A DNA stretch of 64,000 nucleotides, taken from positions 1-64,000 of IMG/VR virus record IMGVR_UViG_2928611649_000001; one strand, 5' to 3'. The notes beneath the pieces are model-generated. The model did no database searches, was not told the origin of the DNA, and saw only the letters and a list, made by a program, of their open reading frames with translations. The DNA comes from a virus. Position 1 is the first letter of the stretch. Every line of letters begins with the position of its first letter. A program made the position numbers and the translations under genes. Positions 4,785 to 51,937 of this stretch are shown here, in pieces.

Positions 4785-5155
4785 GCCGCCACCTCGATCA
4801 GTTCCATCCGGATGCTGACCTCGTTATCGAAGTCTATCCGGTCGGCGCTCACCAGCTTGATGCCGTCCGATCCGTCCAGCAGCGGCCAACCTTCAACACC
4901 TTGCACGGCGAACTCGTGCACCGCGCCAAGGCCGCTGGAGATTTCTTCCGCCAGCGCCCGGCGGCAAAGCATGTTGAGCACAGCGACCACAACATCGTCG
5001 TCTGCTTCCGCCAGCCGGTCGTCGGCGCCGCTCCAAAACTCGTTAATCAGCGTGCACAGGGCGATCATCTCGTCGCTCTCAGGCGCGCGCACGTCGACGA
5101 CGACATCGCTACAGGTATCGTCGAAGGTAAGGGTGTATCGGGCCCAGGTAATCAT
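4781..5155 (-). CDS. Acidic hypothetical protein
   Basis: 124 aa, in-operon coupling. Confidence 0.4.
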   Translation of the reverse strand: MITWARYTLTFDDTCSDVVVDVRAPESDEMIALCTLINEFWSGADDRLAEADDDVVVAVLNMLCRRALAEEISSGLGAVHEFAVQGVEGWPLLDGSDGIKLVSADRIDFDNEVSIRMELIEVAA

Positions 5156-6330
5156 GCTGCCACCCCGGCCACGTTCGCCACCACGTAGACGCCCTGCGTG
5201 CTGCCGACCACGTCGGCGGCTTCCATGGCCTGCAGCAGGCTGGAGGCCCGGTTGTAGGTAATCCGCAGCACGCGCTGCACCAGCGATATCGACGCGCGGT
5301 CCTGCTCTCGCACCAGCGCCACGGCGGCCGGGTACAGTGGGTCGGTGGCACTGCCATCGCCATCCGGGATACCACCCAGCCGCATCACTGCGCGCTGCGG
5401 CTGCACCGGCTCGTCGCCGGCCGCCGGCCGCGTCACCGGAGGCTCGCCCTCAGCCACGCCGCCCAGCGCCTCGACCAGGTCCGCCAGCAGCTTGGCCAGC
5501 TCGCCGCTGACCAGCGCGAAGTCGCCATCGAAGCGCTCAGCGTCGTCCTTGGCGTAGTTTTTCTCCGTCAGCACATCCAACAGCTTCACCGACTTGACGG
5601 CCAGGCTCTGGTCCAGCACGAAGCTGATCTTGCTATCCCATGTCATGGCCAGGCGGATGCACTGCTTCCCGGCGGCGATGTGGCGGCGCAACTCGTCCGC
5701 CTCGAGCGTGTGGCGCTTCCACTGCACCTGGGCCTTGCTCTCGCCGGTCGCCTGCAGGGTGGCGTCCATGTCGACCGTGAAGCCGGCTGGCGCATCGTCC
5801 GCCTGCAGCCACTCGGTCATCACGCCCACCGGTGAGCGCTGCACGCGCAAGCTCTCGACCGGGAACTTGTCGACGGCCTTGAGCAGCAACCTGATGACCT
5901 GGTCCGCCTTCGCCGGGCTGGCCGCGCCCACCACCAGCCATCCGTTGACCGGGTCGATCCAGACCCAAGTGCTGTCGCGCTTGGGGAATGCGCGCGGCAG
6001 CAGTTCGTCGGCGACGCGCTCGCGCAACTCCTTCATCGCCTTCTTGCCGGGCGCGAAGCCTTGCGCTTCTTCCATCTCGGCGGCGCGCGCCTTCGTCACC
6101 TGGTTGATGACGGCCGCCGGAAGCACCTTGGACTCGGTCGTGAGCTTCAGCAGGAACTGGCCGTTGATGACGTGGACCAGCTCGCCGGCCGGGCGCGGCG
6201 GCTCCCAGCCCTCGCGCAGCAGTTCGTTGCTGCCGGCCGGCGCGAAGGCCTGCTGCGCCAGCATGCGGTTGAGGGACTCGGCCGAAGTCAGGAAGCCGGG
6301 CAGGCGGTACATCTGAAGATTCTTAAACAT
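5152..6330 (-). CDS. rdgC: RdgC-like recombination-associated protein fused to a C-terminal FtsK-gamma winged-helix domain
   Basis: The N-terminus MFKNLQMYRL... is RdgC-like over ~300 aa. The C-terminal ~60 aa (DPLYPAAVALVREQDRASISLVQRVLRITYNRASSLLQAMEAADVVG) matches the FtsK gamma KOPS-binding domain. Confidence 0.6.
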   Translation of the reverse strand: MFKNLQMYRLPGFLTSAESLNRMLAQQAFAPAGSNELLREGWEPPRPAGELVHVINGQFLLKLTTESKVLPAAVINQVTKARAAEMEEAQGFAPGKKAMKELRERVADELLPRAFPKRDSTWVWIDPVNGWLVVGAASPAKADQVIRLLLKAVDKFPVESLRVQRSPVGVMTEWLQADDAPAGFTVDMDATLQATGESKAQVQWKRHTLEADELRRHIAAGKQCIRLAMTWDSKISFVLDQSLAVKSVKLLDVLTEKNYAKDDAERFDGDFALVSGELAKLLADLVEALGGVAEGEPPVTRPAAGDEPVQPQRAVMRLGGIPDGDGSATDPLYPAAVALVREQDRASISLVQRVLRITYNRASSLLQAMEAADVVGSTQGVYVVANVAGVAA

Positions 6331-7513
6331 GGTCAGCCTTTTGTTGGGTTGGGGAAGGGCGGCGATAGGTTTTGGTTAGGCCGCCGTTGACGCTGTGGCC
6401 GCGCCGGAGTACTGCGCGCGCCAGCGCCGCCCGGTCGCTGCGGCTGCTGAGCGACTGTCCGAGCAGGCCGAAGTAGCTGTTGGCGGATGCGAACACCTCG
6501 TCGGCGTCGATGCGAAGCACGCGGTTGACGGCCTGGCGGACGGTGCGGCGCCGGGTGCGCGTGTTCCATGGCTTGATGACGTGGCCGACGAAGTCGATCC
6601 CGCGCGCGACCGGCTGCAAGATGGTCTTGGTCGGGTTCAGGTTCGCGTGCAGCACGCCGGGCAGGAAGGTGTTGATGTCCGTCAGCGCGGCGTTCAGCCA
6701 CTGCGGCGACTCGTGCAGCAGCACGAAGTCATCCACGTAGCGGATGTAGTGCTGGGCGCGCACGCGGTGCTTCACGTGCTGGTCCAGCGCATCGAGGTAG
6801 ACGTTCGCGAAGAACTGTGATGACAAATTCCCGATGGGAAGTCCGCGGTGGGCCGGGTGGTTGGCCAGCCGCTTGTGCGCCGGAACCAGCGCCAGCAACT
6901 CCGGCGCGCCGCGCAGTTCGAAGTTCTCACGAGGGTCATGGAACAGAATGGTTTCGGCCAAGGCCAGCCACCAGGGCTCCGTGATCCGCGCCGCCAGCTG
7001 GCCGTGCAGCACTGCCTTGTCGATGGCGACGAAGAAGTTGGCGAGGTCGCATTTCAGATACCAGACTGGCTTCGACCAGTTCTGGCTGATGCTGCGCACT
7101 TTCGCCTCCAGGCGGCCGGCGGCGTACAGCGTGCCACGGCCCGGGATGCATGCGCAGGTATCTGGAATGAATGAGGCGTAGAAGCGCGGCGCCACGTGGT
7201 TGTACAGCACATGGTGCACGATACGGTCGGGGAAGTCAGCAGCCCAGACCTCGCGCGGCTTGGGGCGGGTGACGATAAAGCAGACCGAGGTGCCGGGCTT
7301 GTACGAGCCGTCGATCAGTTCGTCGTACAGCTGGATCAGGTTGCGCTCAAGGTCCTGCTCGAACACGAGAGCGCTGGGGGTATTGCGCTTGTGGCGCCGG
7401 CAGTCGAAGTACGCGACTACCAGCTCCTCAAAAGAGAAGTCTGCATCGGGTTGATCTGCGGACGGCGCGCGCGGCGCCGGCATACGACTTGTGGTTGTTG
7501 TTCTGGTTGCCAT
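6323..7513 (-). CDS. Diversity-generating retroelement reverse transcriptase
   Basis: 396 aa. It has the YVDDFV catalytic box and LPIGNLSSQFFANVYL (the DGR-specific SQ in place of QG in motif 4). It lies directly downstream of avd and the TR. The annotated start overlaps the TR 3' end. Confidence 0.85.
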   Translation of the reverse strand: MATRTTTTSRMPAPRAPSADQPDADFSFEELVVAYFDCRRHKRNTPSALVFEQDLERNLIQLYDELIDGSYKPGTSVCFIVTRPKPREVWAADFPDRIVHHVLYNHVAPRFYASFIPDTCACIPGRGTLYAAGRLEAKVRSISQNWSKPVWYLKCDLANFFVAIDKAVLHGQLAARITEPWWLALAETILFHDPRENFELRGAPELLALVPAHKRLANHPAHRGLPIGNLSSQFFANVYLDALDQHVKHRVRAQHYIRYVDDFVLLHESPQWLNAALTDINTFLPGVLHANLNPTKTILQPVARGIDFVGHVIKPWNTRTRRRTVRQAVNRVLRIDADEVFASANSYFGLLGQSLSSRSDRAALARAVLRRGHSVNGGLTKTYRRPSPTQQKADHV

Positions 7514-7562
7514 TGTCGAAGTTCTGGTTCCAAGCGTTAGTCGGGTAGTCGGCGTGCTGCGT
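7454..7562 (-). repeat. DGR template repeat (TR), ~107-109 bp, AAC-rich on the coding strand
   Basis: The coding strand reads CAGCACGCCGACTACCCGACTAACGCTTGGAACCAGAACTTCGACAATGGCAACCAGAACAACAACCACAAGTCGTATGCCGGCGCCGCGCGCGCCGTCCGCAGAT. It matches three VRs, with mismatches almost exclusively at TR adenines. Confidence 0.85.
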
Positions 7563-7733
7563 CAATTCGTACTATCTACGTCGCCCCGGAGAAGGCTCTC
7601 GGCCGATCAGCGGGGTAACTGCGCCAGGCCTTCCCGAACACCGTCGGGCGGTTCCTGTGATGCGCGTGGCGGTGGCCTCGTGAGCCAGCGGTACGACCAG
7701 ATTAAAATTGCACAGACCTGAATGCCGTAGCGG

Positions 7734-8093
7734 TCAGGTAGCGGGCAACGATGCGGGCTTCTTCCCACGCCATCCATTGGCCTGCCGGCCGATGCTGCTG
7801 GTGATCGCGATTGCCGCGGCATACTGCGCAAGCGAGATCAGCTTCAGGTCCGTCGCCAGCCTGAACAGCAACTCCGTTACCTGGACGTGCTCGATGAGCT
7901 TGTTCAGGTAGGGCACCTTGTCGATCGCCACGTTTGCGCGATAGACGAGGGTGGAGAGCTCCAGGCATTCGGCGTTGATCTTCTGGCCGACCGTCGTTTT
8001 GAAATCTCGGCGCATGTTCTTGATGAGATTCATCGCCAGGAGCATCAGCTCGTAGGTCGCCTTGTAGATCGGCAGGTCTTTGTGGAGGGCCAT
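7734..8093 (-). CDS. avd: DGR accessory variability determinant (Avd)
   Basis: 119 aa, helical and basic at the C-terminus. Position is canonical: between the target gene/VR and the TR-RT. Confidence 0.7.
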   Translation of the reverse strand: MALHKDLPIYKATYELMLLAMNLIKNMRRDFKTTVGQKINAECLELSTLVYRANVAIDKVPYLNKLIEHVQVTELLFRLATDLKLISLAQYAAAIAITSSIGRQANGWRGKKPASLPAT

Positions 8094-8113
8094 GGGTTCC
8101 TTAAATTACTAAA

Positions 8114-8524
8114 TTACTGAATTGGCAATCTGCGGACGGCGCGCGCGGCGCCGGCATACGACTTGCGGAGGTAGTTCTGGTAGCCATCGTAGAAGTACTG
8201 GAGCCAAGCGTTAGTCGGGTAGTCGGCGTGCTGCTCGCAGGACCAGTAGTAACGTGGCTTGAAGTGCGACTTCAGGTTGGCGATCAGCAGGCTCTGCTGA
8301 CGACGAGTGGGCAGTACGCCGCCGTTCTTCTCGGCCCACGCCATCGACTTGTCCCAGTCCGCATCCAGCAACTCGCCCGGCAGCAGGAAGACATGCTCAT
8401 CTGGTGCGCCGTTCTCGCCCAGCAGCAGACCGGAGTAGGTCTCGCCCGGTTTCAGGTTCTCTACCAGAAACTGGCGCTTGCTCGCCGCCATCAGCGATTC
8501 GATTTCTGCGGTATTCGATTGCAT
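8114..8524 (-). CDS. DGR target protein 1 (C-type lectin / DUF1566-like fold), VR at its 3' end
   Basis: Start trimmed to MQSNTAEIESL, which has an AGGAGA RBS; the ORF track gives 8114..8713. The C-terminus LPTRRQQSLLIANL...YWSCEQHADYPTNAWLQYFYDGYQNYLRKSYAGAARAVRRLPIQ is encoded by VR1. Confidence 0.7.
   Translation of the reverse strand: MQSNTAEIESLMAASKRQFLVENLKPGETYSGLLLGENGAPDEHVFLLPGELLDADWDKSMAWAEKNGGVLPTRRQQSLLIANLKSHFKPRYYWSCEQHADYPTNAWLQYFYDGYQNYLRKSYAGAARAVRRLPIQ
8128..8234 (-). repeat. DGR variable repeat VR1
   Basis: 10 mismatches to TR. 9 are at TR adenines; 1 is a G-to-T (GAC to TAC). Confidence 0.8.
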
Positions 8525-8541
8525 TGCTTCTCCTTGGTGAT

Positions 8542-9003
8542 TTAGCCGCGTGGCGGCGATTCGTGAAATTCGACGCCCATCTGGCCGCCAAACGCGTGAA
8601 TCTGTTCCATGTACTGGGCGAAGCCCTTGACCGTCAGGTCGGTCGAACTGCCGATCAGCACCGGCTGGCCGCCCGGGTCGAAGTCCCACTTGCGGTACTT
8701 CTCGTCCTTGCACAGCTCCGGGTCATATTCATCCGGCAGGAACTGCTGCTTGAAGTACTCGTGCCAGATTTCGGCGCTGTACTGGCGCTCGTCGCTCCAG
8801 CACTGCTCGGCGATGTCCTTTAGCGGCCCAGCCCACATACGGGCATTCTGGTCAAGCTTCCGCGCCTTCACTTCCTCGCGCACCAGCAACTCCAGCGGGC
8901 GCTCAGCATCCAGCGGCACGTTGCGGAGCAGGGCGATTGCGCGATCAACCTGCTCCTGGCCGCGCAGCAGCAACTTGCGCTGCTCGAACTTCTGGCGGGT
9001 CAA
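8542..9003 (-). CDS. ninB: NinB/Orf-family recombination mediator
   Basis: LDQNARMWAGPLKDI and IHAFGGQMGVEF align with lambda NinB (LDQNRKLWA ... IQAFGTERGVKW). Confidence 0.7.
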   Translation of the reverse strand: MTRQKFEQRKLLLRGQEQVDRAIALLRNVPLDAERPLELLVREEVKARKLDQNARMWAGPLKDIAEQCWSDERQYSAEIWHEYFKQQFLPDEYDPELCKDEKYRKWDFDPGGQPVLIGSSTDLTVKGFAQYMEQIHAFGGQMGVEFHESPPRG

Positions 9004-14407: not shown

Positions 14408-14641
14408 TCACGGCGCAACTCCTTCACGGCTGACCAGCTTCGGCGCCGGCGCGTTGCGGTTCGTGCGCTCGATCTCGCGCAGGGCGTAGGTGCTGCCCGT
14501 GGCGATGCGGTCGCTGGCGTCCAGGTTGCCGCCGGTGATTGCGCCCAGCAGGCCGCTGTCCTGGTACTCGTAGTCCATCGCGGCGAAGACGGCAAGGCGC
14601 GAGTCGCGGCCGGCGGTCATGTGGTTGGCGGCGGTGTTCAT
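14408..14641 (-). CDS. Hypothetical protein (MNTAANHMTAGRDSRLAVFAAMDYEYQDSGLLGAITGG...)
   Basis: ATGA start overlaps the stop of the radical SAM gene. Confidence 0.35.
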   Translation of the reverse strand: MNTAANHMTAGRDSRLAVFAAMDYEYQDSGLLGAITGGNLDASDRIATGSTYALREIERTNRNAPAPKLVSREGVAP

Positions 14642-15579
14642 GCGGCGCTTTCCACTTCGCGAGGCGCATGCACGATTGGGAATGTGCGGCCGACGCTCGG
14701 GCGGGCCAGTTCCGGGTTGTTGCGCATCCAATCCTGTACAAACCACAGTTGACCGCAACCGCCGCCGATGTCGTCCTGGCCGGCCGGATCAAAGCAGCGG
14801 GTCGAGTAGCCGTAGGCGCCGAGCTTGCCCATGAAGTCGGTGGCCAGTTGGCGCTGGCGCACGTTCGCCGCCGCAACCGATTCATCGCGCTCACAGACCA
14901 CGGAGATGGTCGCCTGCCAGACATCCGGATCGAACATCGCATAGATGCGGTCGGCGTCGGCCTGAACCGTGTTGCCTTCGTGCGCGCGGTAGTTGAAGAA
15001 TGGCTGGCGCCCAGTAGCTACGAACCAGGCTTCGCCGGCCGCCGCGATCTGATGCAGGTTCAGCTTTGCCTTGAACGGCACCAGTGCGTCACGCGCAGCA
15101 TCGGTGCTTTCGTGCACGGAGAACTGGAGGCCAACAGCAGGCACCTCGACCGACAGTGCATTCACGCGCTCATAGTCCACGGCCGGCGCCGAGGTGCTGA
15201 TCAACAGCGAGAAGCGCGGGTACAACGCATGCAGCTGGCGGATGGCGTCGGCCAGGTGACCGAAGTTCAGCAGCGGCTCACCCATCGACATGAACATGAT
15301 CTGGCATTTCTCAACCTTGGCTGGGTCGATGTCGCGGTCGGCGAACAGGTGCTGAACCTGGCCAACGATCTCGTCGGCGGTCAGACTGCGCACGAACGCA
15401 TCGCCAGCGCCACAGAAACGGCAGCCGACAGGACAGCCGCTTTGCGTCGAGCAGCAGATGACGGTGCGTGCCTCGTAGGTCGGGTATTTGTACAGCACGG
15501 CTTCGGCGACGGCATTGCCGAAATCGAACACGTACTTGCTGACGTTCTGGTCGGTGGAATCGATGCGCTTCACTGCCAT
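14638..15579 (-). CDS. Radical SAM enzyme, RlmN/Cfr-like RNA methyltransferase family
   Basis: CSTQSGCPVGCRFC is a CX3CX2C cluster. IMFMSMGEPLLN matches the RlmN (V/I)FMGMGEPL block. The C-terminal GGGCGQL matches the RlmN second catalytic Cys (AACGQL). Start trimmed to MAVKRIDS with a GGAGA RBS. Confidence 0.65.
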   Translation of the reverse strand: MAVKRIDSTDQNVSKYVFDFGNAVAEAVLYKYPTYEARTVICCSTQSGCPVGCRFCGAGDAFVRSLTADEIVGQVQHLFADRDIDPAKVEKCQIMFMSMGEPLLNFGHLADAIRQLHALYPRFSLLISTSAPAVDYERVNALSVEVPAVGLQFSVHESTDAARDALVPFKAKLNLHQIAAAGEAWFVATGRQPFFNYRAHEGNTVQADADRIYAMFDPDVWQATISVVCERDESVAAANVRQRQLATDFMGKLGAYGYSTRCFDPAGQDDIGGGCGQLWFVQDWMRNNPELARPSVGRTFPIVHAPREVESAA

Positions 15580-15939
15580 GATGATCTCCTGTTGACTTCG
15601 TTGTTGGGGAGCGCGTAGGCCGCTCGCTGCCTGTGGTGTCCGGGCTACTTTCACTTTTACAGACTTGCCCGCTCAGCTTCACGGGGATTTCCGGGTCCGG
15701 GATCAGCTGGCCAGATTCAGTCATGCGGAAACCAACAGGGGAGGCGGCTAGCATGTGCGGTGCCGTATGTACGGCGCTGGCTCTGCGCTTTTGCTCGACC
15801 AGCTACAACCGGCCGCCTCCACTCTTGGCCCTGCGCTCACCTGGCGCAGCTCAGGGACCATGCTGATGTCTCAGGGCGCTTTTCGGGACGCCATTCCTGT
15901 ACCGGCTTGCCTACGGCGCCGGCCGACCGCTGTTTCTCG

Positions 15940-16470: not shown

Positions 16471-16501
16471 ACTGGCTCCGGATCAGTTTTAAATTACTGA
16501 A

Positions 16502-17134
16502 TTACTGAATTGGCAATCTGCGGACGGCGCGCGCGGCGCCGGCATACGACTTGTGGTCGTTGCCCTGGCCGCCATTGTCGAAGACCTGGCCCCAAGCGCC
16601 AGCCGGGTAGTCGGCGTGCTGCGTGCTCGACCAGTACCACTCGTCGTCATCGAAGGCATCAGCGCCGCCGGCGCGGAAATTCTCGACCGTGGTCTGCATC
16701 GGTGATTCATCGGTGTAGGCGGTGCCCACTGGCAGGCTGCCCGGGTTCACGCCATCGATGCCATCGGCGTAGTTCTCGCGGTCGGTCGGTTTCAGGTGGC
16801 GGTATTGCAGCTCCTGCTGGTCGCGCGCCGGGATTGACCAGTCGCTGAAGCCGTTAGTCGTCAGCGCCAGGACGGCCAGCGCCAGTTCGCTGCCGGCGGC
16901 GGCCATGGCTTGGGTGTTCGACAGGCCGTCGGTGCGGCTCATGGCGCCAGCAACCAGGTCCAGCGACTCGTTCCATTTGCCGCGCAGCTCACCGGTAGCG
17001 CCGGCCGTGACGTTCGCGAACATCTGCCCGTTCTCGATCGTGATGCCGGTGAAGTAGCCGCCTTCGAGCGGTGCGCCGATGGCGGGGAGGGCGGAAGCTG
17101 CGAAGACTGGTGCTGCGGCGAGTGCTTGGTTCAT
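16502..17134 (-). CDS. DGR target protein 2 (DUF1566/C-type-lectin-like), VR at its 3' end
   Basis: 210 aa. WSIPARDQQELQY...EWYWSSTQHADYPAGAWGQVFDNGGQGNDHKSYAGAARAVRRLPIQ shares the C-terminal scaffold with target 1. Confidence 0.65.
   Translation of the reverse strand: MNQALAAAPVFAASALPAIGAPLEGGYFTGITIENGQMFANVTAGATGELRGKWNESLDLVAGAMSRTDGLSNTQAMAAAGSELALAVLALTTNGFSDWSIPARDQQELQYRHLKPTDRENYADGIDGVNPGSLPVGTAYTDESPMQTTVENFRAGGADAFDDDEWYWSSTQHADYPAGAWGQVFDNGGQGNDHKSYAGAARAVRRLPIQ
16516..16624 (-). repeat. DGR variable repeat VR2 (remote, ~9 kb from the TR)
   Basis: 12 mismatches to TR, all at TR adenines. Confidence 0.8.
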
Positions 17135-17856
17135 GAACGGCTCCTGTGGGTTATGGGGTGCTTCAGTGGCAAAGCCCGCTCGTGGCGGGCAGGGATCAGT
17201 CTTGCGGCGGGGTTCGCTCGGCGGTCCAGACGGAGTGGACGATGAGCGCGATGCCGGCAGCGGCGATCAAGGCAAGGGCGTAACCCATGGCGATCAGCCC
17301 AACGAAGCCGGAACGGCCACGGTCGAGAAGTCGAAGGCTGGTGCTGGACCGGCTACTGCTGCGAGTGCTGCGAGTTCTGCTGGGTTCATCGTGTTCTCCG
17401 TCGTGGTTGGTGTGTCGATGGAAAACAGTTTAGCAAACACTAAATCAGAACGTCAAGCAAATACTAAACTTTGTGATAAAATAATTTCGTCGTGTGAATT
17501 TTGCGACCGCCCACCGGGAAGATCAGAAACCGGCGGTGCTTTTTTCTCGCGCGTTTGCGTGGGTAGAGTTGACTTGTAGTGCTGTGTGGTAATAGTTTGC
17601 TGTGGTTGTATAAAAAACATAAAACCAAGCAGGGGATAAAAACACAGTTCATTGCGAAGCAATGGACGCCGCGCGGCGAGCGCATGTGTGATTGATTAGA
17701 TAAATGATGAGTCGTCGTGTAAGCAACCAACTTCAAGCTTTAGCTACTACGCGGGCGAATACCATAAAACAGAGTTTGCGTGGAAAAAGATACGACGTTT
17801 TGTAGACGATTTTTGAAGTGAAAGGCCGCTTGGCGGTCGCCCATCCTGGGCAAAAA

Positions 17857-17885
17857 AAATGCCTCGACTGGCGAGGCTGGAAGGA
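17857..17885 (-). terminator. Rho-independent terminator (GCCTCGCCAGTCGAGGC + T8), minus strand
   Basis: Perfect 6-bp stem followed by ATTTTTTTTG on the minus strand. Confidence 0.5.
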
Positions 17886-17891
17886 GTTGAT

Positions 17892-18116
17892 ATGCACCAA
17901 CTACATCAGGAAGATCGTCCTGGCGATGTGATGATCACGAGAACGTGTATTCCTTCCAAGGAATCCGGGACGCATCGATTGACGCAAGGAAATTTACCAG
18001 ATCCGTCCGGCCCTGGTATTGAAACCGGCCACGCCCATCTTGCGACGCCAGAACAACTGAAAGCCCTGGAAAAAGTGGTTGCGCGTCTGCCCGAGTCCTA
18101 TCTGAGTCCGAGCTAG
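17892..18116 (+). CDS. Hypothetical protein (MHQLHQEDRPGDVMITRTCIPSKESGTHRL...). Conflicts with the overlapping antisense ORF.
   Basis: Perfect GGAGG RBS 7 nt upstream. Low GC3. Overlaps 17935..18195 on the opposite strand. Confidence 0.3.
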   Translation: MHQLHQEDRPGDVMITRTCIPSKESGTHRLTQGNLPDPSGPGIETGHAHLATPEQLKALEKVVARLPESYLSPS

Positions 18117-18195
18117 TATTCATCGCAGAGGGTTTGACGATGACAATCGCAAAGGTCACCCCTTGCTCTTTGATAACCGCACCTTGAAATTTCAT
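17935..18195 (-). CDS. Hypothetical protein (MKFQGAVIKEQGVTFAIVIVKPSAM...). Conflicts with the overlapping antisense ORF.
   Basis: The minus-strand terminator lies just downstream. Low GC3. Confidence 0.3.
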   Translation of the reverse strand: MKFQGAVIKEQGVTFAIVIVKPSAMNTSSDSDRTRADAQPLFPGLSVVLASQDGRGRFQYQGRTDLVNFLASIDASRIPWKEYTFS

Positions 18196-18807
18196 GTTTT
18201 TCTTTCGTAGTTTTGGAATGCGCCCGCCGCCGGGAAGCAATCGGGCGCGTTTCATTGTAGCGAAATTGACAAGCTAAAATATCACCAATAGTCATTGGCT
18301 CCGCCGTAGCCGCACCGACTGCAGACGTAAAAAAAGCCAGCGCTGTGCGAGCCTGAGAAGGGGTTGTAAACCGTGGGGAAGAAGAGTAAATTCCGTCAGT
18401 GATGGCGGGCCGGCGCTAACCGACCCGCTTCCCACTAGGAAAGAATTCGATCAACGAGCACGTGCAAAATTGCTGCAAGCGCCCAGAGATTGATTTCCAC
18501 CTTTACTGCTTTGATCGTCAGTTTAAACATGGCAGAAGCCCTGTTTGCGCTGGCGGTACCGCCAACTGGTTGAGGGTTGGCTTATTTTTTAAAGTGCGGT
18601 TGCTTGCACTTCGCCTTGGCGCGCTGCAGCGTGCTTCGGCACCATGCTAGCGAAGTGATCCGCCCGCATGGCTCAGCTCAGTGGGTTCGATTATCCGGAA
18701 TCCACCGGGCTCTACCACCACGTCACCTTCCGCACCTTGCTGGATGCGGACATGGCTTGCGACCATGCTCTTTCGGCCCGCGCATCGGATGGCGCGCGGG
18801 CTATTCT

Positions 18808-19029
18808 TTACCCCAACTCAGCGTCGTCGCCCGCCAGACCGCCGCGCGTGCCGCCCTTGGCCAGCAGCTCGCCATCGACAAGGCCGCCCTTCGTGCCACT
18901 GGTGGCTAGCAGTTCATCGTCGACCAAGCCGCCAGTCCTTTTCGTGCCTCCGTTATCCGCCAGTTTTTTACCGTCAGGCTTGGCGACCGCGGGCGATTTC
19001 TTTGCTGGGACGTGGGATTTTTTGATCAT
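18808..19029 (-). CDS. Small protein with three KGGLVDxELLA tandem repeats
   Basis: GGAG RBS. 73 aa. Confidence 0.4.
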   Translation of the reverse strand: MIKKSHVPAKKSPAVAKPDGKKLADNGGTKRTGGLVDDELLATSGTKGGLVDGELLAKGGTRGGLAGDDAELG

Positions 19030-19147
19030 AGGCCACTCCTGCTAGTTGGATTCAAGGGGGAGTTTGTGCATTGCTCAGCTGCTGAACCCGCCAGCCAAGC
19101 GCTTGTGTAGCTGGCCGTGGCGCACCGGATGGTGCGCGGGCTATTTC

Positions 19148-19705
19148 TTATTTGGGACAATTTTCACGGATAAAGTCTACGGATTCTCTGAACCCCTTCA
19201 GGTCGATGTCCTCGCCCAGCATGCCGCCAATAATTGTTCCAATTTGAACTCGAAGTCTTTTCCCGTCATACAGCTGGTCAAAGTAAGGCTCCAGGATTAA
19301 CGAGCCCAAATCGCTTTCACTTTCGGTAGCCCTCTGCTGCCCTTGAGCAGGTTCATCATTGATCCGAACAGTGTAGTATTTCACTCCACCTCGGCCTCTC
19401 ATCGAAATGAAGAAATATCGCAACCCTCCCTGAATGTTCCAATCGCCCTTATACAACGCGACACACGACTTCTTGTCCGTCATTGCGTTGATGCTTTGGT
19501 CTACTGTCCAGAATCCGGAACGAAAGGCGGTCTTGGCTGTTGGAGTTGCCGCTTTGTTACTGGTAGAAGGCTTTTCTGTTGCAGCGCCGGTGTCATAACA
19601 AGCCAAGCGAGCCTTGTCAGCTTTAATGGATGCACAGTCTGCGCCAAAAGCGAGCACTGGCAGTGCGACGGTCGCCGTCAGAGTTAAGCGGAGAATGGGA
19701 TTCAT
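19148..19705 (-). CDS. Secreted protein (Sec signal peptide MNPILRLTLTATVALPVLAFGADC)
   Basis: 185 aa with an N-terminal signal peptide. Located in the low-GC island. Confidence 0.5.
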   Translation of the reverse strand: MNPILRLTLTATVALPVLAFGADCASIKADKARLACYDTGAATEKPSTSNKAATPTAKTAFRSGFWTVDQSINAMTDKKSCVALYKGDWNIQGGLRYFFISMRGRGGVKYYTVRINDEPAQGQQRATESESDLGSLILEPYFDQLYDGKRLRVQIGTIIGGMLGEDIDLKGFRESVDFIRENCPK

Positions 19706-19785
19706 CGAGTTCCTTGAGGCGGCAGATGCGTGCCGGGTCGCCCTGCAATTATAGGAAAATTGACAACTGGAAATCTATCGAATTG

Positions 19786-20478
19786 TCACGATCGATTTAC
19801 CATGTCCAGCACGGACTCATCGCGGCCTGCGGTGATCTCGGCGCACCTGGTGCGCAGCTTGTGTAGGACGGCCGGACCGATGCCTTTGAACGCGAGCAAC
19901 TGCTCGTCGCTGGCTTGGTCGATTCGCGCGGGCGTGTCGAGAGCCACATCCCACATCGCCAAAGCCGCATGATGGGGCAGGGTGGGCACGGTCGCCAAGA
20001 AGGTAGGGAAATAATGTTCGCATATTTCATCGACATAGTGTCCACTCAGTCCGCTGTATTTTGCCCATTCCGGCCGAGTGACTTCCGCACGCAATAAGCG
20101 GAGTCGCTCCCTTGCTGGAAGTCTCAACTCCACTACTTTGCGTAGAGCGATGAGAAATTGGGGATAGATCAGATCATAGCCATTTCTAATTGCCATCTCG
20201 AACGTCTGCCACCCAATGCCAGGATCATCCATATCTATGCCGATTTCACGCAGCGTCTTGAGCTTAGTCGACCAGTGGCCTTGATGTGAATTATCTGCAA
20301 ATTGCGGCGGGCAATAATTCAGGTCGTAGTGGCGGTACCCATGCCATTGCAGTACCGCTAGCGGGGTATCGAAGTGCAATGCGGCACGGAACTCAACGCC
20401 ATTGCATATTTCTGAATTGAGCCGTATTCCCTCAGCGCCGCCAGGCGAAATCTTGCTCCAGCATCTCCAAACCTTCAC
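19786..20478 (-). CDS. Hypothetical protein with a C-terminal helix-hairpin-helix (LLAFKGIGPAVLHKL)
   Basis: 230 aa. Confidence 0.4.
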   Translation of the reverse strand: MKVWRCWSKISPGGAEGIRLNSEICNGVEFRAALHFDTPLAVLQWHGYRHYDLNYCPPQFADNSHQGHWSTKLKTLREIGIDMDDPGIGWQTFEMAIRNGYDLIYPQFLIALRKVVELRLPARERLRLLRAEVTRPEWAKYSGLSGHYVDEICEHYFPTFLATVPTLPHHAALAMWDVALDTPARIDQASDEQLLAFKGIGPAVLHKLRTRCAEITAGRDESVLDMVNRS

Positions 20479-20496
20479 TCAACCCTCCGCGCAGCG

Positions 20497-20739
20497 TTAC
20501 TTGCTGGCCAGGTCGTGCATCTCCTTGACCAATGCTTTTGTCTCCGCACTGTCGCGCGCTAAAACGCGTAGCAAGTCGTAGATCGGGCCTGCTTGGAGCC
20601 GGTCGATAATCTCCGCGTTGAGCGTGCGGCCGTTGTACTCGGCGATCTCCATCAACTTGGCATGCAATTCTCTCGGGATTCGCAGCGATGTCTTAATGTA
20701 GTCGTCTTGCGTCGGCTTCTTGATGGGCGATTTGTTCAT
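20497..20739 (-). CDS. Arc/MetJ-type ribbon-helix-helix DNA-binding protein
   Basis: KTSLRIPRELHAKLMEIAEYNGRTLNAEIIDRL is a typical RHH. Confidence 0.5.
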   Translation of the reverse strand: MNKSPIKKPTQDDYIKTSLRIPRELHAKLMEIAEYNGRTLNAEIIDRLQAGPIYDLLRVLARDSAETKALVKEMHDLASK

Positions 20740-21049
20740 CGCCCAATTGTTTCTGACCCGCCAAGTTTTAGGCTAAAAACTCCTTCATAATGAAGGGTGA
20801 TTGTGAGAATCTGTTACTTTTCATTTCACAAGTAAAGGTTAAAAACCCCTCTACTTTTGATATGCAATCAAGGCAAACCTGTAATATAGTTAACACACTG
20901 TAAACATTTGATAGCAGAGTATTATGGAAAACTTACCCCGGATAGTTGCTGCATACGAGAAGATGGATAAGCAGGCACGCGACAAGTATGTATTGCGTAT
21001 GGAGCAGTCCGCCATCCGATACCCGATGCAGGTCCAGCAGCGTGCAAAT

Positions 21050-21436
21050 CTACGACTTGTTACTAATGAGAACCGGTGACTGAATTAGGCGCTCTGTTGC
21101 CTCGGCCTCATCTAAGATATCCCTCTGCCCCCGTTCACTAGTCGTTCGGAAGAGAGTTACCAAGTGCATTTCTTCTTCGTTCAACCAAGCGTAGAAAGGC
21201 GCGCGCGATGCGGGCGACTCGCGTGGCGGCTCAACTGGGCGCACATACTCCACGCCATCCGGCGTATCGAGATAACCGGCGCCCATCTTATATTTTTCCT
21301 CTAAGCGACGAGCGACCTTCTCCCCGAAGGAGCCATCCCCGCGCAATTGCGAAAAAAGACTCTTCTCTTGTTTTGGTATGCCGTTGTCGGCAACCCACTT
21401 GGCAAGGTTCGCTCTGCGAGTGTCAGTGATGTTCAT
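21050..21436 (-). CDS. CI-like phage repressor (HTH, no S24 peptidase domain)
   Basis: ANLAKWV..KSLFSQLRG..FGEKVARRLEEKYKMGAGYLD is a lambda/P22-type repressor HTH. Divergent from the cro-like gene. Confidence 0.55.
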   Translation of the reverse strand: MNITDTRRANLAKWVADNGIPKQEKSLFSQLRGDGSFGEKVARRLEEKYKMGAGYLDTPDGVEYVRPVEPPRESPASRAPFYAWLNEEEMHLVTLFRTTSERGQRDILDEAEATERLIQSPVLISNKS

Positions 21437-21507
21437 GCGCGCAGTTTAGTGTTTATTAAAGTAGTAATCACTTGACAGGTGGTTTAGCATTCACTAAACT
21501 CGCCTGC
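21437..21507. promoter_or_regulatory. Immunity-region divergent promoter/operator region with GTTTAG half-sites
   Basis: gtttagtg at ~21446. gtttagCATTCActaaac is an 18-bp palindrome at ~21489-21506. agtttagtg and cactaaact form an inverted pair. Confidence 0.45.
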
Positions 21508-21783
21508 ATGGACCTGAAAAAATACATCTCCGCCGAGCGCGGACGCGCCAAATCGCTTGCTGCCCACCTGGGCATCTCGCCTTCATTCCTTTCGCAAATC
21601 GCGGCAGGAACAGCGCCAGCTTCGCCATCCAGGTGCTTGGAGATCGAGAAGGGCACCGGCGGCCAAGTCACACGCAAGGACCTGCGCGAAGACTGGCGCG
21701 AAATCTGGCCCGAGCTCAAGCAATCCAACGCCAATCCCCAGCGCGCCACCACCCCGCGCAAGCCTGCGAAGGAAGTCGCATGA
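21508..21783 (+). CDS. Cro/YdaS-like HTH regulator
   Basis: LAAHLGISPSFLSQIAAG...CLEIEKGTGGQVTRKDLRED matches the YdaS/Cro family. Confidence 0.55.
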   Translation: MDLKKYISAERGRAKSLAAHLGISPSFLSQIAAGTAPASPSRCLEIEKGTGGQVTRKDLREDWREIWPELKQSNANPQRATTPRKPAKEVA

Positions 21784-21992
21784 AAACCGCTACCCAAGAT
21801 CACTTTTTGTGCGTCGTCATAGTCGCCGCTATCGCGGAAGCACGCCGCGCAGGCGATGACGTGAAAGTCGCCAGCGAGGCTGCCGCCAAGGCGTATGTGG
21901 CTGGACTAGTAGCGGCGGATGCGCCCGGCGAAAACAGCGGCGAGCGGGTTATCAGCGCTACGGGCCAGGTGGAATATCGCCCTCCGTCGTGA
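21780..21992 (+). CDS. Hypothetical protein
   Basis: 70 aa. ATGA overlaps the cro-like stop. Confidence 0.35.
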   Translation: MKTATQDHFLCVVIVAAIAEARRAGDDVKVASEAAAKAYVAGLVAADAPGENSGERVISATGQVEYRPPS

Positions 21993-22265
21993 GTAGTTTT
22001 TGCAGTTCCGCAATGGCTGTTCGAATCGGTATCTCCTGCAGCTTGGTGGAGTCCATTGGACCCTCAAGTGTCATTGGCCCCGTTATGTCGATTCTCACGT
22101 TGAGCCAGCCGAAGTCGTATGTGCCCGAAGTTTTGACTTTCCCGTTGATGAAAGTCGCAGTCATTTCTTTTTTGCAGTCCATGGGAGATCCCTTTGCAAG
22201 TTGTTGTGTGAGAACTGCAACTGTAACGCATTGGAATCTCCCGCCCATATTTTGGAAAGCACCAC

Positions 22266-24075: not shown

Positions 24076-24591
24076 ATGGATCACGCAGACGTACTACACA
24101 TCATCGAAGACCGCACCTTCACCGCGAAGATGGGCGAGCGCACCATCACCGGCCTGATGGTCGAAAGCACCTGGAACGGGCTGACGAACTACACCGCCGC
24201 CAACGGTGCGAACCTGGTGGTGCTGGACGCCGAGCGGCGCGTGGTCACCGGCAGCGCCGCGCTGCTGGTCCACTTGGGCCTGGGCGAGCCGCAGATCGGC
24301 GCCGAGTTCAGCGGCGGCATCTACGCCGGCCTGACCGAGGTTGACGGCAAGCCGGCGCGCCTGATCATGTTGCTTCCGCACGCCGTCGATGTGTCGTGGG
24401 ATACCGCGATGGACTGGGCGAAGCTGCAAGGCGGCCACCTGCCTACGCGCGCCGAGCAGCGCACTCTCATCGAGAACGTGAAGAGTCACTTTGAGCCCCG
24501 TTGGTATTGGTCCTGCGACCAGCACGCCGACTTCCCGTCTTACGCTTGGCTCCAGCTCTTCGGCAATGGCTACCAGGTCAGCTACCACTAG
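24076..24591 (+). CDS. DGR target protein 3 (DUF1566/C-type-lectin-like), truncated by a TAG stop inside VR3
   Basis: Start at MDHADVLHII with a GGAGA RBS. C-terminus LPTRAEQRTLIENVKSHFEPRWYWSCDQHADFPSYAWLQLFGNGYQVSYH*. The downstream frame continues SYAGAARAVRRLPI. Confidence 0.65.
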   Translation: MDHADVLHIIEDRTFTAKMGERTITGLMVESTWNGLTNYTAANGANLVVLDAERRVVTGSAALLVHLGLGEPQIGAEFSGGIYAGLTEVDGKPARLIMLLPHAVDVSWDTAMDWAKLQGGHLPTRAEQRTLIENVKSHFEPRWYWSCDQHADFPSYAWLQLFGNGYQVSYH

Positions 24592-24625
24592 TCGTATGCC
24601 GGCGCCGCGCGCGCCGTCCGCAGAT
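24520..24625 (+). repeat. DGR variable repeat VR3 (remote, ~17 kb from the TR, opposite strand)
   Basis: About 14 mismatches to TR, all at TR adenines, including AAG to TAG (Lys to stop). Confidence 0.8.
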
Positions 24626-24660
24626 TGCCAATTTAATCATTCAGTAATTTAGAGGACAAG

Positions 24661-25425
24661 ATGGCAAACGAAAACAACACCGGCGCCGCGCCCGGCGCAC
24701 TGCCGCCGCTGCCGAACCTGGCAAGGATGGCGCCACATGAACTGAATTCCGCGCTACTTGAGTTCGGCAGCGCCGCGTGGCACATGGGTCTCGACGTCGG
24801 GCTGGAGCATGCGCCAGCCGTCACCGACACCGGCTTGCTTGAGCTGCGCGACCACCTGGCCGCTGCAGCGCAAGACAACCAGGCGATCACGCTATCGCCT
24901 GTAGCTGCCAGCGCGCTGCATCACGCGATGACTACGCCGTCGGCAGCATCCAGCCCAGCCGGCGAGGCGATGCAAGAGGCGCGCGCGTCGCTGGATGAGG
25001 CCCTGGCCAGCGATGAGCTTCGCCAGTTGAAGGCTGAGGCGCAAGCGCTGGCCGCCGACGGCGCCAACTGGAGCATGCACGTCGGCTGCATGTTCTTTCT
25101 TGCCCTGATCGAGCGCATCGAATCGTTGGACACCAAGCCGGCCGGCTACATCGCCAGCCAGGACATGGTCAAGCTCGGCAACTGCCGCGCTGAGCTGTGG
25201 GCCGCGCCGCCAGCCGCCGATGCTGTGCCGGTATTCCTCGGCGCTCCAGCGGCGCCAGAAGGCTGGCAACTAGTGCCAAAGGTTCCGACGCCAGAAATGA
25301 TCATGGCTCTGGCCGTGCTGCCGGACATGGTCGACGGACGAATCATCCGGTACAGCATCGACAAGCTGCCAGATGCGTACGCCGCCATGCTCGCGGTTGC
25401 GCCAGCCGCCGGAACTCCGCCCTGA
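24661..25425 (+). CDS. Hypothetical protein
   Basis: 254 aa. Its RBS overlaps the conserved VR-downstream flank. Confidence 0.4.
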   Translation: MANENNTGAAPGALPPLPNLARMAPHELNSALLEFGSAAWHMGLDVGLEHAPAVTDTGLLELRDHLAAAAQDNQAITLSPVAASALHHAMTTPSAASSPAGEAMQEARASLDEALASDELRQLKAEAQALAADGANWSMHVGCMFFLALIERIESLDTKPAGYIASQDMVKLGNCRAELWAAPPAADAVPVFLGAPAAPEGWQLVPKVPTPEMIMALAVLPDMVDGRIIRYSIDKLPDAYAAMLAVAPAAGTPP

Positions 25426-25480
25426 CCGAATTTACCGGGCCGCCGCGCCCCGATCTGCGCGGCAATATATCGGAGAAATC

Positions 25481-26365
25481 ATGAATTTACCCAATCTGTC
25501 CGGCAAGCAAATCCGCAACATCGTAGTCGGCGCCGTCGTCGGCATCCTGTTGCTGTCGTTCTGGCCACTGAAGTCGGTCCCGACTGGCTCGCGTGGCGTA
25601 ATTACGCAGTTCGGCGCAATTAAAGGCGTCGAGCAGGAGGGGCTGGCCTTCGTGCCGCCTTGGCAGCGCCTGTCGATCTTCAGTATCCGCGCCGAAGAGG
25701 CGAGCATCGAGAATGCCGACGGCAGCACCGCCGACACCCAGCCAGTCAAGGTCAGCATGACGGTGCGCTACAGCATCGCCACCGACCGCGTCGCCGAGGT
25801 CTACGAGAAATACAGCCACGATGGCAACCTGGCCAGCTACGTGCAGACGGCGGCGGCCGAGGTATTCAAGGCAGTGACCGCACGCTACACGGCGCCGGAC
25901 CTGATCAGCAAGCGGTCCCAGGTCTCGGGCGACATCAGCGCCGCCCTGCGCGAGAAGTTGCGCCTGTACGGCGCCAGCGTGATCAATATCGACATGCGAA
26001 ATTTCTCGTTCGGCGGTAGCTACATGGCGGCCATCAACGAGAAGGTCACGCAAGAGCAGCTGCGCTTGGGCGCCGAGAATAAGCTGAAGACCGTCGAGGC
26101 CGAGCAAAAGCAGAAGGTGGCGATCGCCGAGGCTGAAGCCAAGGCGCTGTCAGCAAAGGCAGACGGCGAGGCCTACGCCAACCTGACGGTGGCCAAGGCC
26201 CAGGCCGAAGCCTTGCGAGTTCAAAACGCCGCGCTGGCGCAGAACAAAGACGTGCTGGAACTGCGCCGCATCGAGGTGGAGCAGACGAAGGCCAATCGCT
26301 GGGACGGCGTGTTGCCGACGACGATGTACGGCTCCGCCCCGATCCCGTTCCTGAATGCCAAGTAG
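25481..26365 (+). CDS. SPFH/band-7 (prohibitin/HflC-like) membrane protein
   Basis: N-terminal TM helix. SPFH core with a C-terminal coiled coil (EAEQKQKVAIAEAEAKA..). GGAGA RBS. Confidence 0.65.
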   Translation: MNLPNLSGKQIRNIVVGAVVGILLLSFWPLKSVPTGSRGVITQFGAIKGVEQEGLAFVPPWQRLSIFSIRAEEASIENADGSTADTQPVKVSMTVRYSIATDRVAEVYEKYSHDGNLASYVQTAAAEVFKAVTARYTAPDLISKRSQVSGDISAALREKLRLYGASVINIDMRNFSFGGSYMAAINEKVTQEQLRLGAENKLKTVEAEQKQKVAIAEAEAKALSAKADGEAYANLTVAKAQAEALRVQNAALAQNKDVLELRRIEVEQTKANRWDGVLPTTMYGSAPIPFLNAK

Positions 26366-26880: not shown

Positions 26881-27224
26881 CGCGCATCGTAAAAATATTC
26901 CCTCCGGCCGGTAGCCGCTCGCGCGCGTTGCTCATCGCACTTCAGCAAGGCCCTGGCACCTTCTACCAGGTGTGCGAGCGCGCCAACTTCGACATCGAGG
27001 ACTCCCGCCTTGAACTGGCCCTGCGCCACATCTTCGACCACATGATCGGCGGGAACGTGAGCTTGCGCGGCCTGACCTATTCGCTGACCGAAGATGCACG
27101 GATCTCGTTGGGCGAAGCGCCACCCGCGCCGTACGTTGGTCAGGTGGCCGGCCCAGCCTATCGAGGCACCGCCTATACCGCGCCCGTCAAGATTGCGCGC
27201 CGCGCTGCTGGAGCACACGCATGA
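26877..27224 (+). CDS. Hypothetical protein
   Basis: 115 aa, coupled to the methyltransferase gene. Confidence 0.4.
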   Translation: MTRIVKIFPPAGSRSRALLIALQQGPGTFYQVCERANFDIEDSRLELALRHIFDHMIGGNVSLRGLTYSLTEDARISLGEAPPAPYVGQVAGPAYRGTAYTAPVKIARRAAGAHA

Positions 27225-39288: not shown

Positions 39289-39376
39289 GGAAGCATGGCT
39301 GAGAGGCCGAAAGCAACGGCTTGCTAAGCCGCACGCTCGCAAGGGCGCCCAGGTTCGAATCCTGGTGCTTCCGCCA
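39289..39376 (+). tRNA. tRNA-Ser (anticodon GCU), type II with a long variable arm
   Basis: GGAAGCA...TGCTTCC acceptor stem. CCAGG-TTCGAAT-CCTGG T arm. Anticodon loop TTGCTAA. 3' GCCA. Confidence 0.7.
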
Positions 39377-39381
39377 GTTTT

Positions 39382-39455
39382 GCGGGTGTAGCTCAATGGC
39401 AGAGCTGACGCTTTCCAAGCCTATGACCAGGGTTCGATTCCCTGTACCCGCTCCA
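39382..39455 (+). tRNA. tRNA-like, probable tRNA-Gly (UCC) with an imperfect anticodon stem (possibly degenerate)
   Basis: GCGGGTG...TACCCGC acceptor stem. CAGGG-TTCGATT-CCCTG T arm. Loop TTTCCAA. The anticodon stem GACGC/GCCTA pairs at only 3 of 5 positions. Confidence 0.45.
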
Positions 39456-51899: not shown

Positions 51900-51937
51900 C
51901 GTCGCCTCTAATAAACTTGACCATTGGGAATATTATT

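Follow-up and report, generated by a model that had tools for sequence, protein, structure and literature searches.

Diversity-generating retroelements (DGRs) are known in molecular detail from one element only, that of Bordetella phage BPP-1, in which RNA lying 3′ of the template repeat (TR) both primes and stops synthesis of the complementary DNA (cDNA). In BPP-1, nucleotides Sp53–56 of the spacer (Sp) pair with TR118–121, Sp A56 acts as the primer, and copying begins at TR G117; Sp59–70 pairs with a segment of avd just upstream of TR, and this is the stop duplex (bRT-Avd cryo-EM preprint). Here we describe a DGR in a stretch of viral DNA of 64,000 nucleotides (positions 1 to 64,000 of IMG/VR virus record IMGVR_UViG_2928611649_000001; hereafter the window), which is a lambdoid prophage of Duganella violaceipulchra. 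We are confident that the locus is a genuine DGR, in which one cassette, consisting of avd, the RT-15 RNA, TR, and a reverse transcriptase (RT), serves three small genes for predicted C-type-lectin-like proteins, each ending in a variable repeat (VR), with an RNA mechanism of the kind proposed below. The cassette and its targets are as follows, with all coordinates being those of the window unless another record is named.

6323..7513, minus strand: DGR reverse transcriptase gene, start ATG 7513, alternative start ATG 7483 (RVT_1, 8ub7, phrog_1423)
7454..7560, minus strand: TR, 107 nt with 30 adenines, encoding QHADYPTNAWNQNFDNGNQNNNHKSYAGAARAVRR in the target frame (repeat search and adenine-tolerant scan)
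7560..7750, minus strand: structured RNA, Rfam RT-15 (RF03018), a full-length cmscan match scoring 163.3 bits (gathering score 82; E 3e-39)
7734..8093, minus strand: avd accessory gene, 119 aa (bAvd, DivGenRetAVD, phrog_3206)
8114..8524, minus strand: target gene 1, 136 aa, predicted N-terminal helix and C-type-lectin-like DUF1566/Lcl_C domain (AlphaFold/Foldseek)
8128..8234, minus strand: VR1, nine adenine differences and one G>T difference from TR (repeat search, alignment)
16502..17134, minus strand: target gene 2, 210 aa, DUF1566-like, first gene of the leftward early operon
16516..16622, minus strand: VR2, differing from TR at 12 sites, every one an adenine, with 11 A>G changes (adenine-tolerant scan)
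24076..24591, plus strand: target gene 3, 171 aa in its present form, following the Ant/Rha gene in the rightward early operon
24520..24625, plus strand: VR3, 14 adenine differences from TR (adenine-tolerant scan)

The divergence between TR and VR is adenine-specific at all three VRs. A repeat search of the region returns a lone 107-nt direct repeat, 7454–7560 against 8128–8234, with 91% identity, and VR2 and VR3 were found by scanning the whole window with TR while ignoring its adenine positions; the scan match for VR3, 24519–24625 (plus strand), includes an extra mismatch at its first base, which probably falls just outside the homology. Adenines account for 9 of the 10 differences in VR1, 12 of 12 in VR2, and 14 of 15 in VR3, or 35 of 37 in total (P = 1.7e-17); for VR1 alone, the probability of nine or more of ten differences falling at A is 8e-5, given 30 A in a TR of 107 nt. 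Of the 30 TR adenines, 20 are changed in one VR or more, and clade-wide 661 of 710 TR/VR differences are at adenines (56 VRs of 26 related elements). All three VRs form the 3′ ends of open reading frames (ORFs). An earlier reading of this DNA, made from its letters alone (the sequence-only reading), had described a repeat of about 107–109 bp at 7454..7562 that overlaps the RT start, encodes an N-rich string, and differs from 8128–8234 at ten positions, nine of them at template adenines and one a GAC to TAC change, and had attributed this to adenine-specific mutagenesis. The position of that repeat stands, although its length is 107 nt and not 109. Both candidate RT starts, ATG 7513 and ATG 7483, fall inside TR, the TR translation QHADYPTNAWNQNFDNGNQNNNHKSYAGAARAVRRS includes the quoted string, a tabulation of mismatches by template base gives the same ten differences, and over the three VRs the differences are not spread evenly among the template bases.

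Two further comparisons concern the history of the VRs. In a syntenic sister prophage of Duganella sp. BJB475 (L013), TR differs from the window TR at three non-adenine sites, and both VRs share all three of these changes, whereas at adenine sites each VR differs on its own, in 11 and 15 positions. Periodic overwriting of VRs from TR would be expected to leave such a pattern, which is indirect evidence that it may occur. We also note that 11 of the 12 changes in VR2 are A>G, mostly AAC>GGC, a share exceeding the 330 of 661 seen clade-wide (P = 0.003), and that either selection for Gly or a single biased homing event may account for it.

The ORF at 6323–7513, which the sequence-only reading had taken for a DGR RT, matches Pfam RVT_1, contains both of the motifs that were quoted for it (IRYVDDFV and LPIGNLSSQFFANVYL), and has the motif-4 signature [LIV]GxxxSQ in the form PIGNLSSQ. 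Its top match among solved structures is 8ub7, a 328-aa chain titled just 'Reverse transcriptase' (136 bits, E 2e-38), with a group II maturase as runner-up at 39 bits. Because the residue numbers in the alignment agree with those named in the bRT-Avd cryo-EM preprint, 8ub7 can be identified as the Bordetella phage RT, bRT; the bRT residues K29, F66, R74, I181, G182, Q187, D138, and D215/216 all align to identical residues here, and the position of I76 is a Val. The protein also matches the phage RT family phrog_1423 (PHROG 1423) with E 7e-116, and in tblastn searches it matches 107 phage records, some of them from phages already known to carry DGRs (Bordetella BIP-1, Vibrio VHML, crAss-like phages, and those of Bacteroides and Faecalibacterium); RTs that are 60–80% identical occur in 11 phage isolates among these records. 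These matches place the RT in the DGR class, as had been claimed. In six related loci (L002, L003, L005, L006, L007, and L009) the RT frame is open across TR and the entire RT-15, about 100 codons. A longer RT protein read from this frame was considered and set aside as a chance effect of high GC content; the open frame is probably fortuitous, since the window has a stop at the start of TR.

Assignment of the 119-aa ORF at 7734–8093 (minus strand) as Avd, also anticipated by the sequence-only reading, draws on its sequence matches and on its position adjoining TR and RT. It matches phrog_3206, 'Avd protein of DGR' (E 7e-28), NCBIfam DivGenRetAVD (E 2e-15; 57 bits, below the cut-off of 80), and Pfam bAvd (E 2e-9; 38.6 bits, slightly below the cut-off of 40). 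The targets have weak matches to Pfam Lcl_C (DUF1566), below the cut-off, and also match the C-terminus of phrog_4245. An AlphaFold model of target 1, built with 42 homologues, has a pLDDT of 95.8, and its top Foldseek match is the Legionella Lcl C-terminal domain (8q4e, E 9.5e-5), followed by snake-venom and mammalian C-type lectin-like domains, Bdellovibrio Bd2740, and FGE-like EgtB domains. The model thus predicts a C-type-lectin-like (DUF1566/Lcl_C) fold, preceded by an N-terminal helix (residues 5–23) that could be a trimerising neck, in agreement with the earlier suggestion that the copy at 8128–8234 forms the 3′ end of a lectin-fold gene. Inspection by eye revealed no evident signal peptide in target 1 and no evident signal or lipoprotein sequence in the targets. 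The most likely start of target 1 is ATG 8524: this codon has a Shine-Dalgarno sequence (AAGGAG) and agrees with the public annotation. The sequence-only reading had instead ended the element at 8713, a GTG that is a mechanical ORF start overlapping ninB, and that span also leaves out the VRs at 16516–16622 (minus strand) and 24520–24625 (plus strand). Whereas target 1 is adjacent to the cassette, target 2 is about 8.4 kb from it on the same strand and target 3 about 17 kb away on the other strand; all three lie in phage early operons and not in the tail module, which is free of VRs in the adenine-tolerant template scan of the whole window.

Target 3 is interrupted by a nonsense codon:

24589..24591, plus strand: premature TAG within VR3, an A>T change at the TR Lys codon AAG (TR 7490)

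The TAG removes 14 codons, SYAGAARAVRRLPI, followed by the normal stop, and these remain in frame and identical to the other copies. It is the only premature in-VR stop among the 56 VRs of the 26 related elements, in which the Lys is nearly always kept. By alignment to target 1, the missing residues match the final two beta-strands of its model, and in the alignment of the target 1 family they cover an invariant Arg and five nearly invariant positions; because these strands and the Arg are lost, the truncated protein is probably non-functional. The nonsense codon was most likely introduced by the DGR itself, and would show in a natural setting what it costs a template to keep a non-AAY codon (AAG).

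The RT-15 RNA is about 190 nt long, overlaps the final 17 nt of avd, and ends on the first base of TR, and because TR runs into the RT ORF there is no spacer between TR and RT. Rfam cmscan gives no match in the window to Phage_DGR (RF03022); in BIP-1, used as a control, TR is at 2196–2329 and RF03022 at 2334–2466, that is, 3′ of TR. RT-15 lies directly 5′ of TR in every related locus that carries it, with one to three VRs per locus; these loci were drawn from genome contigs, IMG/VR, and metagenomes, and have RT identities of 57–93%. In the Rhodoferax ferrireducens loci (L004 and L023, 9086–10001), RT-15 and TR are about 800 nt upstream of the start of the RT match, whereas they adjoin it in all other loci, and there may be an insertion between TR and RT. 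An upstream structured RNA is not confined to RT-15, because a distant DGR on metagenome contig Ga0209541_10056935 (L039; RT 38% identical) has Rfam RT-16 at 2684–2844, directly 5′ of its TR (2844–2937; VR at 2386–2479), and RT-16 may share the role of RT-15 since it has the same position in this one distant locus. Four segments of the window are central to what follows.

7698..7705, minus strand: RT-15 linker UUAAUCUG, proposed primer strand (covariation, 24 loci)
7451..7458, minus strand: linker partner CAGAUCAA, whose CAGAU closes the TR/VR homology (final 5 nt) and whose CAA is confined to TR (covariation)
7691..7696, minus strand: 5′ strand UCGUAC of the closing helix of the RT-15 three-way junction, proposed stop duplex (Rfam structure line)
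7567..7572, minus strand: 3′ strand GUACGA of the same closing helix, 6 nt upstream of TR (Rfam structure line)

The linker sequence AAUCUG is conserved, is unpaired in the Rfam model, and is complementary to the conserved CAGAU that ends the TR/VR homology. Beyond this core a further 3–5 positions in each of the two strands covary, as in these pairs from related loci:

linker GAAUCCG with TR 3′ edge CGGAUUC
linker GUUUCAAUCUG with TR 3′ edge CAGAUCGAAAC
linker UUGAAUCUG with TR 3′ edge CAGAUCCAA
linker GUCUU...CUG with TR 3′ edge CAU...AAGAC
linker CACUCUG with TR 3′ edge CAAAGUG

When structure pairs are counted in an alignment (A1) of 24 distinct loci, 80.8% of the cells in the linker:TR helix are paired versus 68.8 ± 1.3 in shuffled alignments, a level reached in 0 of 500 shuffles, and 30 cells show double changes versus 9.1 ± 2.3. 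Sliding the partner by 1–3 columns reduces pairing to 28–49%. One pair, for example, occurs as GC in nine loci, UA in eight, CG in four, and AU and UG in one each, with a single non-pair. In a permutation test of the five distal pairs, 84 of 125 are paired versus 61 ± 3.6, and none of 10,000 permutations reaches this number. Coding constraint does not account for the covariation, because the linker is non-coding and the distal TR side is missing from the VRs; by eye the linker has no pairing with VR flanks past CAGATT, so the distal linker pairs are specific to TR. Just 5′ of the linker partner is G7459, and the same G is present in 25 of 25 relatives examined. The 5′ strand of the closing helix starts 1 nt past the primer-like strand, and this helix also has compensatory variants in relatives, such as UUGUGC:GCACAA and UCGAGC:GCUCGA. 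The element belongs to a clade, marked by RT-15, DUF1566 targets, and an early-region location, whose RNA and target-site layout depart in defined respects from the characterised paradigm. The shift in the position of RT-15 and the covarying helix are statistically supported, and it is from these that we infer a mechanism.

The sequences that follow the VRs are also distinctive.

8099..8130, minus strand: tandem ~8-nt repeats ATTGCCA ATTCAGTA ATTTAGTA ATTTAAGG, which take in the last 3 nt of VR1 and continue past its 3′ edge
16487..16518, minus strand: tandem 8-nt repeats, which take in the last 3 nt of VR2 and continue past its 3′ edge
24623..24654, plus strand: tandem 8-nt repeats, which take in the last 3 nt of VR3 and continue past its 3′ edge

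A GC-rich 3′ segment is the same in TR and all of the VRs through CAGAT, and the copies diverge only past it. The usual difference between the initiation of mutagenic homing sequence of the VR (IMH) and its TR counterpart (IMH*) appears to be missing, because TR and VRs are identical up to this point; DGRs with no IMH/IMH* difference have been noted by Wu et al. 2018 (PMC5758913). All of the VRs, but not TR, are trailed by three to four tandem 8-nt units with the rough consensus TTnAnymm. The lag-8 autocorrelation is 0.494 in VR flanks (n = 56) and 0.214 in TR flanks, against a background of 0.256 ± 0.086 per sequence, and the flanks have a GC content of 40% for VR versus 52% for TR. A strict yTTnA chain at exact 8-nt spacing captures the VR flank repeats poorly, and finds none in the window. 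Most VR flanks start CAGATT, which gives a sixth Watson-Crick pair with the linker, and many TRs, including that of the window, have A·C there. By analogy, we propose the 8-nt repeats as the likeliest mark of the recipient. The sequence-only reading had called this a textbook layout, and while the order target/VR–avd–TR–RT is as described, the term understates the three dispersed targets, the RNA placed 5′ of TR with no TR–RT spacer, and the non-canonical sequence downstream of the VRs; that interpretation is incomplete rather than wrong.

The RNA looks circularly permuted because the cyclic order of primer strand, stop strand, accessory hairpins, stop partner, and TR equals that of BPP-1, and we infer that the RT-15 RNA would be a circular permutation of the BPP-1 DGR RNA. 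In the mechanism that we propose, a transcript of avd, RT-15, TR, and RT would fold so that linker 7705–7698 pairs with the TR 3′ edge at 7458–7451, and the primer-like strand would end at G7698. The RT-Avd complex would then begin cDNA opposite G7459, by analogy with the Sp53–56:TR118–121 pairing and the first templated base G117 of BPP-1, and would copy TR with misincorporation opposite adenines. Synthesis would stop at the RT-15 closing helix, 6 nt upstream of TR, and the cDNA would replace VRs by homology, with the tandem 8-nt repeats marking the recipient. More tentatively, and at somewhat less than even odds, RT-15-type and probably also RT-16-type DGRs may form a variant with a circularly permuted RNA, a cDNA start at a conserved G, 8-nt repeats that replace a distinct IMH and the GC hairpin, and a cargo of early-operon lectin-like proteins with no evident export signal. 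If so, the phage would be diversifying intracellular binders, directed for example against host defence or takeover targets, and not a receptor-binding tail fibre.

Several observations weigh against a DGR that operates in this way. How priming proceeds chemically, where synthesis stops, and what the 8-nt repeats do are put forward by analogy only, and the covariation was counted on hand-anchored segments of related sequences. In the window itself the linker:TR helix (7705–7698 with 7458–7451) has seven of eight pairs, is AU-rich, and contains an A·C mismatch; a single-sequence minimum free energy fold of the avd–RT-15–TR region recovers neither the Rfam structure nor the long-range helix, and the stability of this region is at the shuffled level (z = 0.89). 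The canonical feature of VRs is a GC-rich hairpin or cruciform with a 4-nt loop, 4–34 bp downstream (PMC3240598, PMC5758913), and no stem of at least 5 bp is present within 80 nt past VR1 or VR2; the sole stem downstream of VR3 is 6 bp, 57 nt away, and inside the next ORF. Such a hairpin is not a criterion for membership, since it is found in just 34% of DGRs (PMC5758913), and many of the relatives carry a GC hairpin past the 8-nt repeats. Neither ATG 7513 nor ATG 7483 of the RT has a recognisable Shine-Dalgarno sequence, VR1 has its sole non-adenine difference (G>T at TR 7517, GAC>TAC), and the two public entries for the strain do not differ in their VR-encoded proteins, giving no direct sign of present-day activity. 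These last three points would fit a decayed DGR, with the VR1 change resembling drift, in which the VR differences were left by past mutagenesis and diversification by the cassette has ceased in this strain; the stop that knocked out VR3 and has gone unrepaired would fit as well. We regard decay as decidedly unlikely, however, because the RT ORF is intact with every catalytic and DGR-specific residue kept, and there is no damage to TR, RT-15, avd, or the invariant 3′ segment of any of the three VRs. Moreover, a recent origin of the VR3 stop is indicated by the 42 nt past it, which have not diverged from the other copies, and non-adenine TR changes have been copied into VRs since the split from the BJB475 prophage.

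The absence of a Shine-Dalgarno sequence for an RT that starts inside TR, near the pairing site, also invites the explanation that RT-15 is a cis-regulatory leader for RT translation or transcript stability, with the linker:TR pairing being regulatory and priming being performed by RNA inside the RT coding region, like the BPP-1 spacer. The discoverers of the RT motifs tied only RT-10 to a DGR and left the function of RT-15 and the others open (PMC5737381), and our literature search found no paper linking RT-15 with DGRs or naming 'RT-15 RNA'. We nonetheless think it rather unlikely: the helix ends exactly at the boundary of TR/VR homology and beside the conserved G7459, mirroring the BPP-1 geometry; a single nucleotide separates the primer-like strand from a helix that has its other strand against the 5′ end of TR, in the cyclic order of the BPP-1 primer and stop duplexes; and the pairing lies 25–55 nt downstream of the start codons and so would not mask them. 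To the idea that the repeats are paralogous gene ends kept alike by gene conversion, with an RT of the retron, group II intron, or defence-system kind, we give virtually no credence. Public records do label the RT or its 90% cluster 'retron-type reverse transcriptase' or 'RNA-directed DNA polymerase', and there are weak NCBIfam and PADLOC matches to group II, retron, and defence RT (DRT) models, PADLOC returning nothing beyond such generic RT matches. These scores are nevertheless far under the curated cut-offs, at 77 versus 300 bits for group II (TIGR04416), 40 versus 235 for retrons (NF038233), and 36 versus 200 for Drt, and Rfam cmscan finds no group II intron or retron RNA family in the window. 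The retron and group II assignments were rejected on both score and RNA, and the defence assignment on score, in keeping with the sequence-only reading and with bRT (8ub7) being the best structural match. Gene conversion offers no explanation for the bias to template adenines (35 of 37 differences), nor does this alternative fit the presence of an Avd gene and a non-coding template copy; it is refuted by the adenine bias together with the RT scores.

As a DGR the element is ordinary; as a variant, with priming and stopping proposed to depend on RT-15, it is a testable extension of the mechanism. In this locus and at least 25 relatives the structured RNA is on the opposite side of the template from that of BPP-1, and the covarying helix would recreate the primer/stop geometry, which offers a test of the parts of the DGR ribonucleoprotein that are essential. 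The relatives include culturable isolated Pseudomonas phages; the DNA of one, Cruim01, was read directly, and the RTs of other isolates are 60–68% identical. The proposal also offers a function for the orphan Rfam family RT-15 and a second RNA scaffold for engineered DGR mutagenesis tools, and the 8-nt arrays are a candidate means of discriminating recipient from donor when IMH equals IMH*. The early-operon location of the targets raises the question of what a phage gains from hypermutating non-structural lectin-like proteins.

The host is indicated by target 1, which has 100% identity to a Duganella violaceipulchra protein (strain HSC-15S17 in the record names). Part names in the public records are generic (DUF1566 protein, RNA-directed DNA polymerase or retron-type RT, four helix bundle protein), and the element is not annotated as a DGR in those examined. 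The minus strand is the coding strand for all genes of the cassette region, and the leftward early operon, which is headed by target 2, includes in order RecT, exonuclease, a KTSC-domain protein, NinB, target 1, avd, RT-15, TR, RT, and RdgC; the rightward early operon holds Ant/Rha, target 3, and an SPFH protein, and the late genes for terminase, portal, major head protein, and tape measure are at 41.6–62.7 kb. Positions 17000–22000 and 50000–52000 have 49–57% GC compared with 62% for the window as a whole; we presume the stretch at about 17–22 kb, which target 2 adjoins, to be the immunity region, and that at 50.7–52 kb sits between the head and tail genes. Directly downstream of the RT, with an 8-nt overlap, is a gene (5152–6330, minus strand) encoding an RdgC domain fused to an FtsK-gamma (KOPS-binding) domain, which is also present in the BJB475 prophage. 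A radical SAM protein (14638–15654, minus strand; CxxxCxxC motif, Pfam PF04055) is encoded in the leftward operon between RecT and target 2. On the plus strand there are a gene for an SPFH/Band-7 (prohibitin-like) membrane protein (25373–26365), two genes past target 3 in the rightward operon, two large early genes coding for a 798-aa DNA methyltransferase (27221–29617; phrog_116, phrog_23072) and an 879-aa helicase (32405–35044), and tRNA-Ser(GCT) and tRNA-Gly(TCC) genes (39289–39455) between the replication and packaging genes.

Comparison with the Bordetella BPP-1/BIP-1 element (mtd–avd–TR–brt) reveals the same order of target/VR, avd, TR, and RT, a homologous RT with equal active-site and fingertip residues, an Avd, adenine-specific differences from TR to VR, a C-type-lectin-fold protein with the VR at its C-terminal end, and, within the VR, a 3′ segment that is GC-rich and invariant. 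However, BPP-1 has one target, a tail-fibre receptor-binding protein, whereas here there are three small early-operon proteins, one encoded on the opposite strand. Its structured RNA (Rfam Phage_DGR RF03022, formerly RT-10, the Sp spacer) is 3′ of TR, whereas RT-15 is 5′; IMH and IMH* differ in BPP-1 but read the same here through CAGAT; and where BPP-1 has a GC hairpin/cruciform that is needed for efficient homing, tandem AT-rich 8-nt repeats are found at this locus. The Legionella pneumophila DGR (LdtA) and the CLec2/DUF1566 'category d' targets (Wu et al. 2018, PMC5758913) resemble ours in having DUF1566/Lcl_C-like targets, often as a stand-alone short domain. LdtA is nonetheless a surface lipoprotein encoded in a genomic island, unlike these prophage early-region targets with no signal or lipoprotein sequence seen by eye, and the Legionella element requires a hairpin downstream of VR, which is absent here.

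Other close systems are the RT-15-type DGRs of temperate phages, namely those of Pseudomonas Cruim01 and VB_PaD_phPA-G, Burkholderia vB_E192a, and the Duganella sp. BJB475 prophage, with RT identities of 60–93%; against phage records, megablast of the region gives one match only, to Cruim01, at 73%. In Cruim01 and BJB475, for which the DNA was read, the order is likewise targets, avd, RT-15, TR, RT, with two VRs each. The cassette lies in the early region in Cruim01, vB_E192a, phPA-G (Detrevirus), and BJB475, and in the three isolated phages it is near repressor and integrase genes. The window differs from these relatives in its third target, about 17 kb away on the opposite strand, and in having the sole premature stop within a VR. 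Treponema denticola and other multi-target DGRs also have one TR and several non-adjacent VRs (PMC5758913), but their remote targets are chromosomal and the elements are not phage-borne, whereas here all of the targets lie within about 17 kb in one prophage, which fits the published expectation for phage-borne DGRs (PMC5758913).

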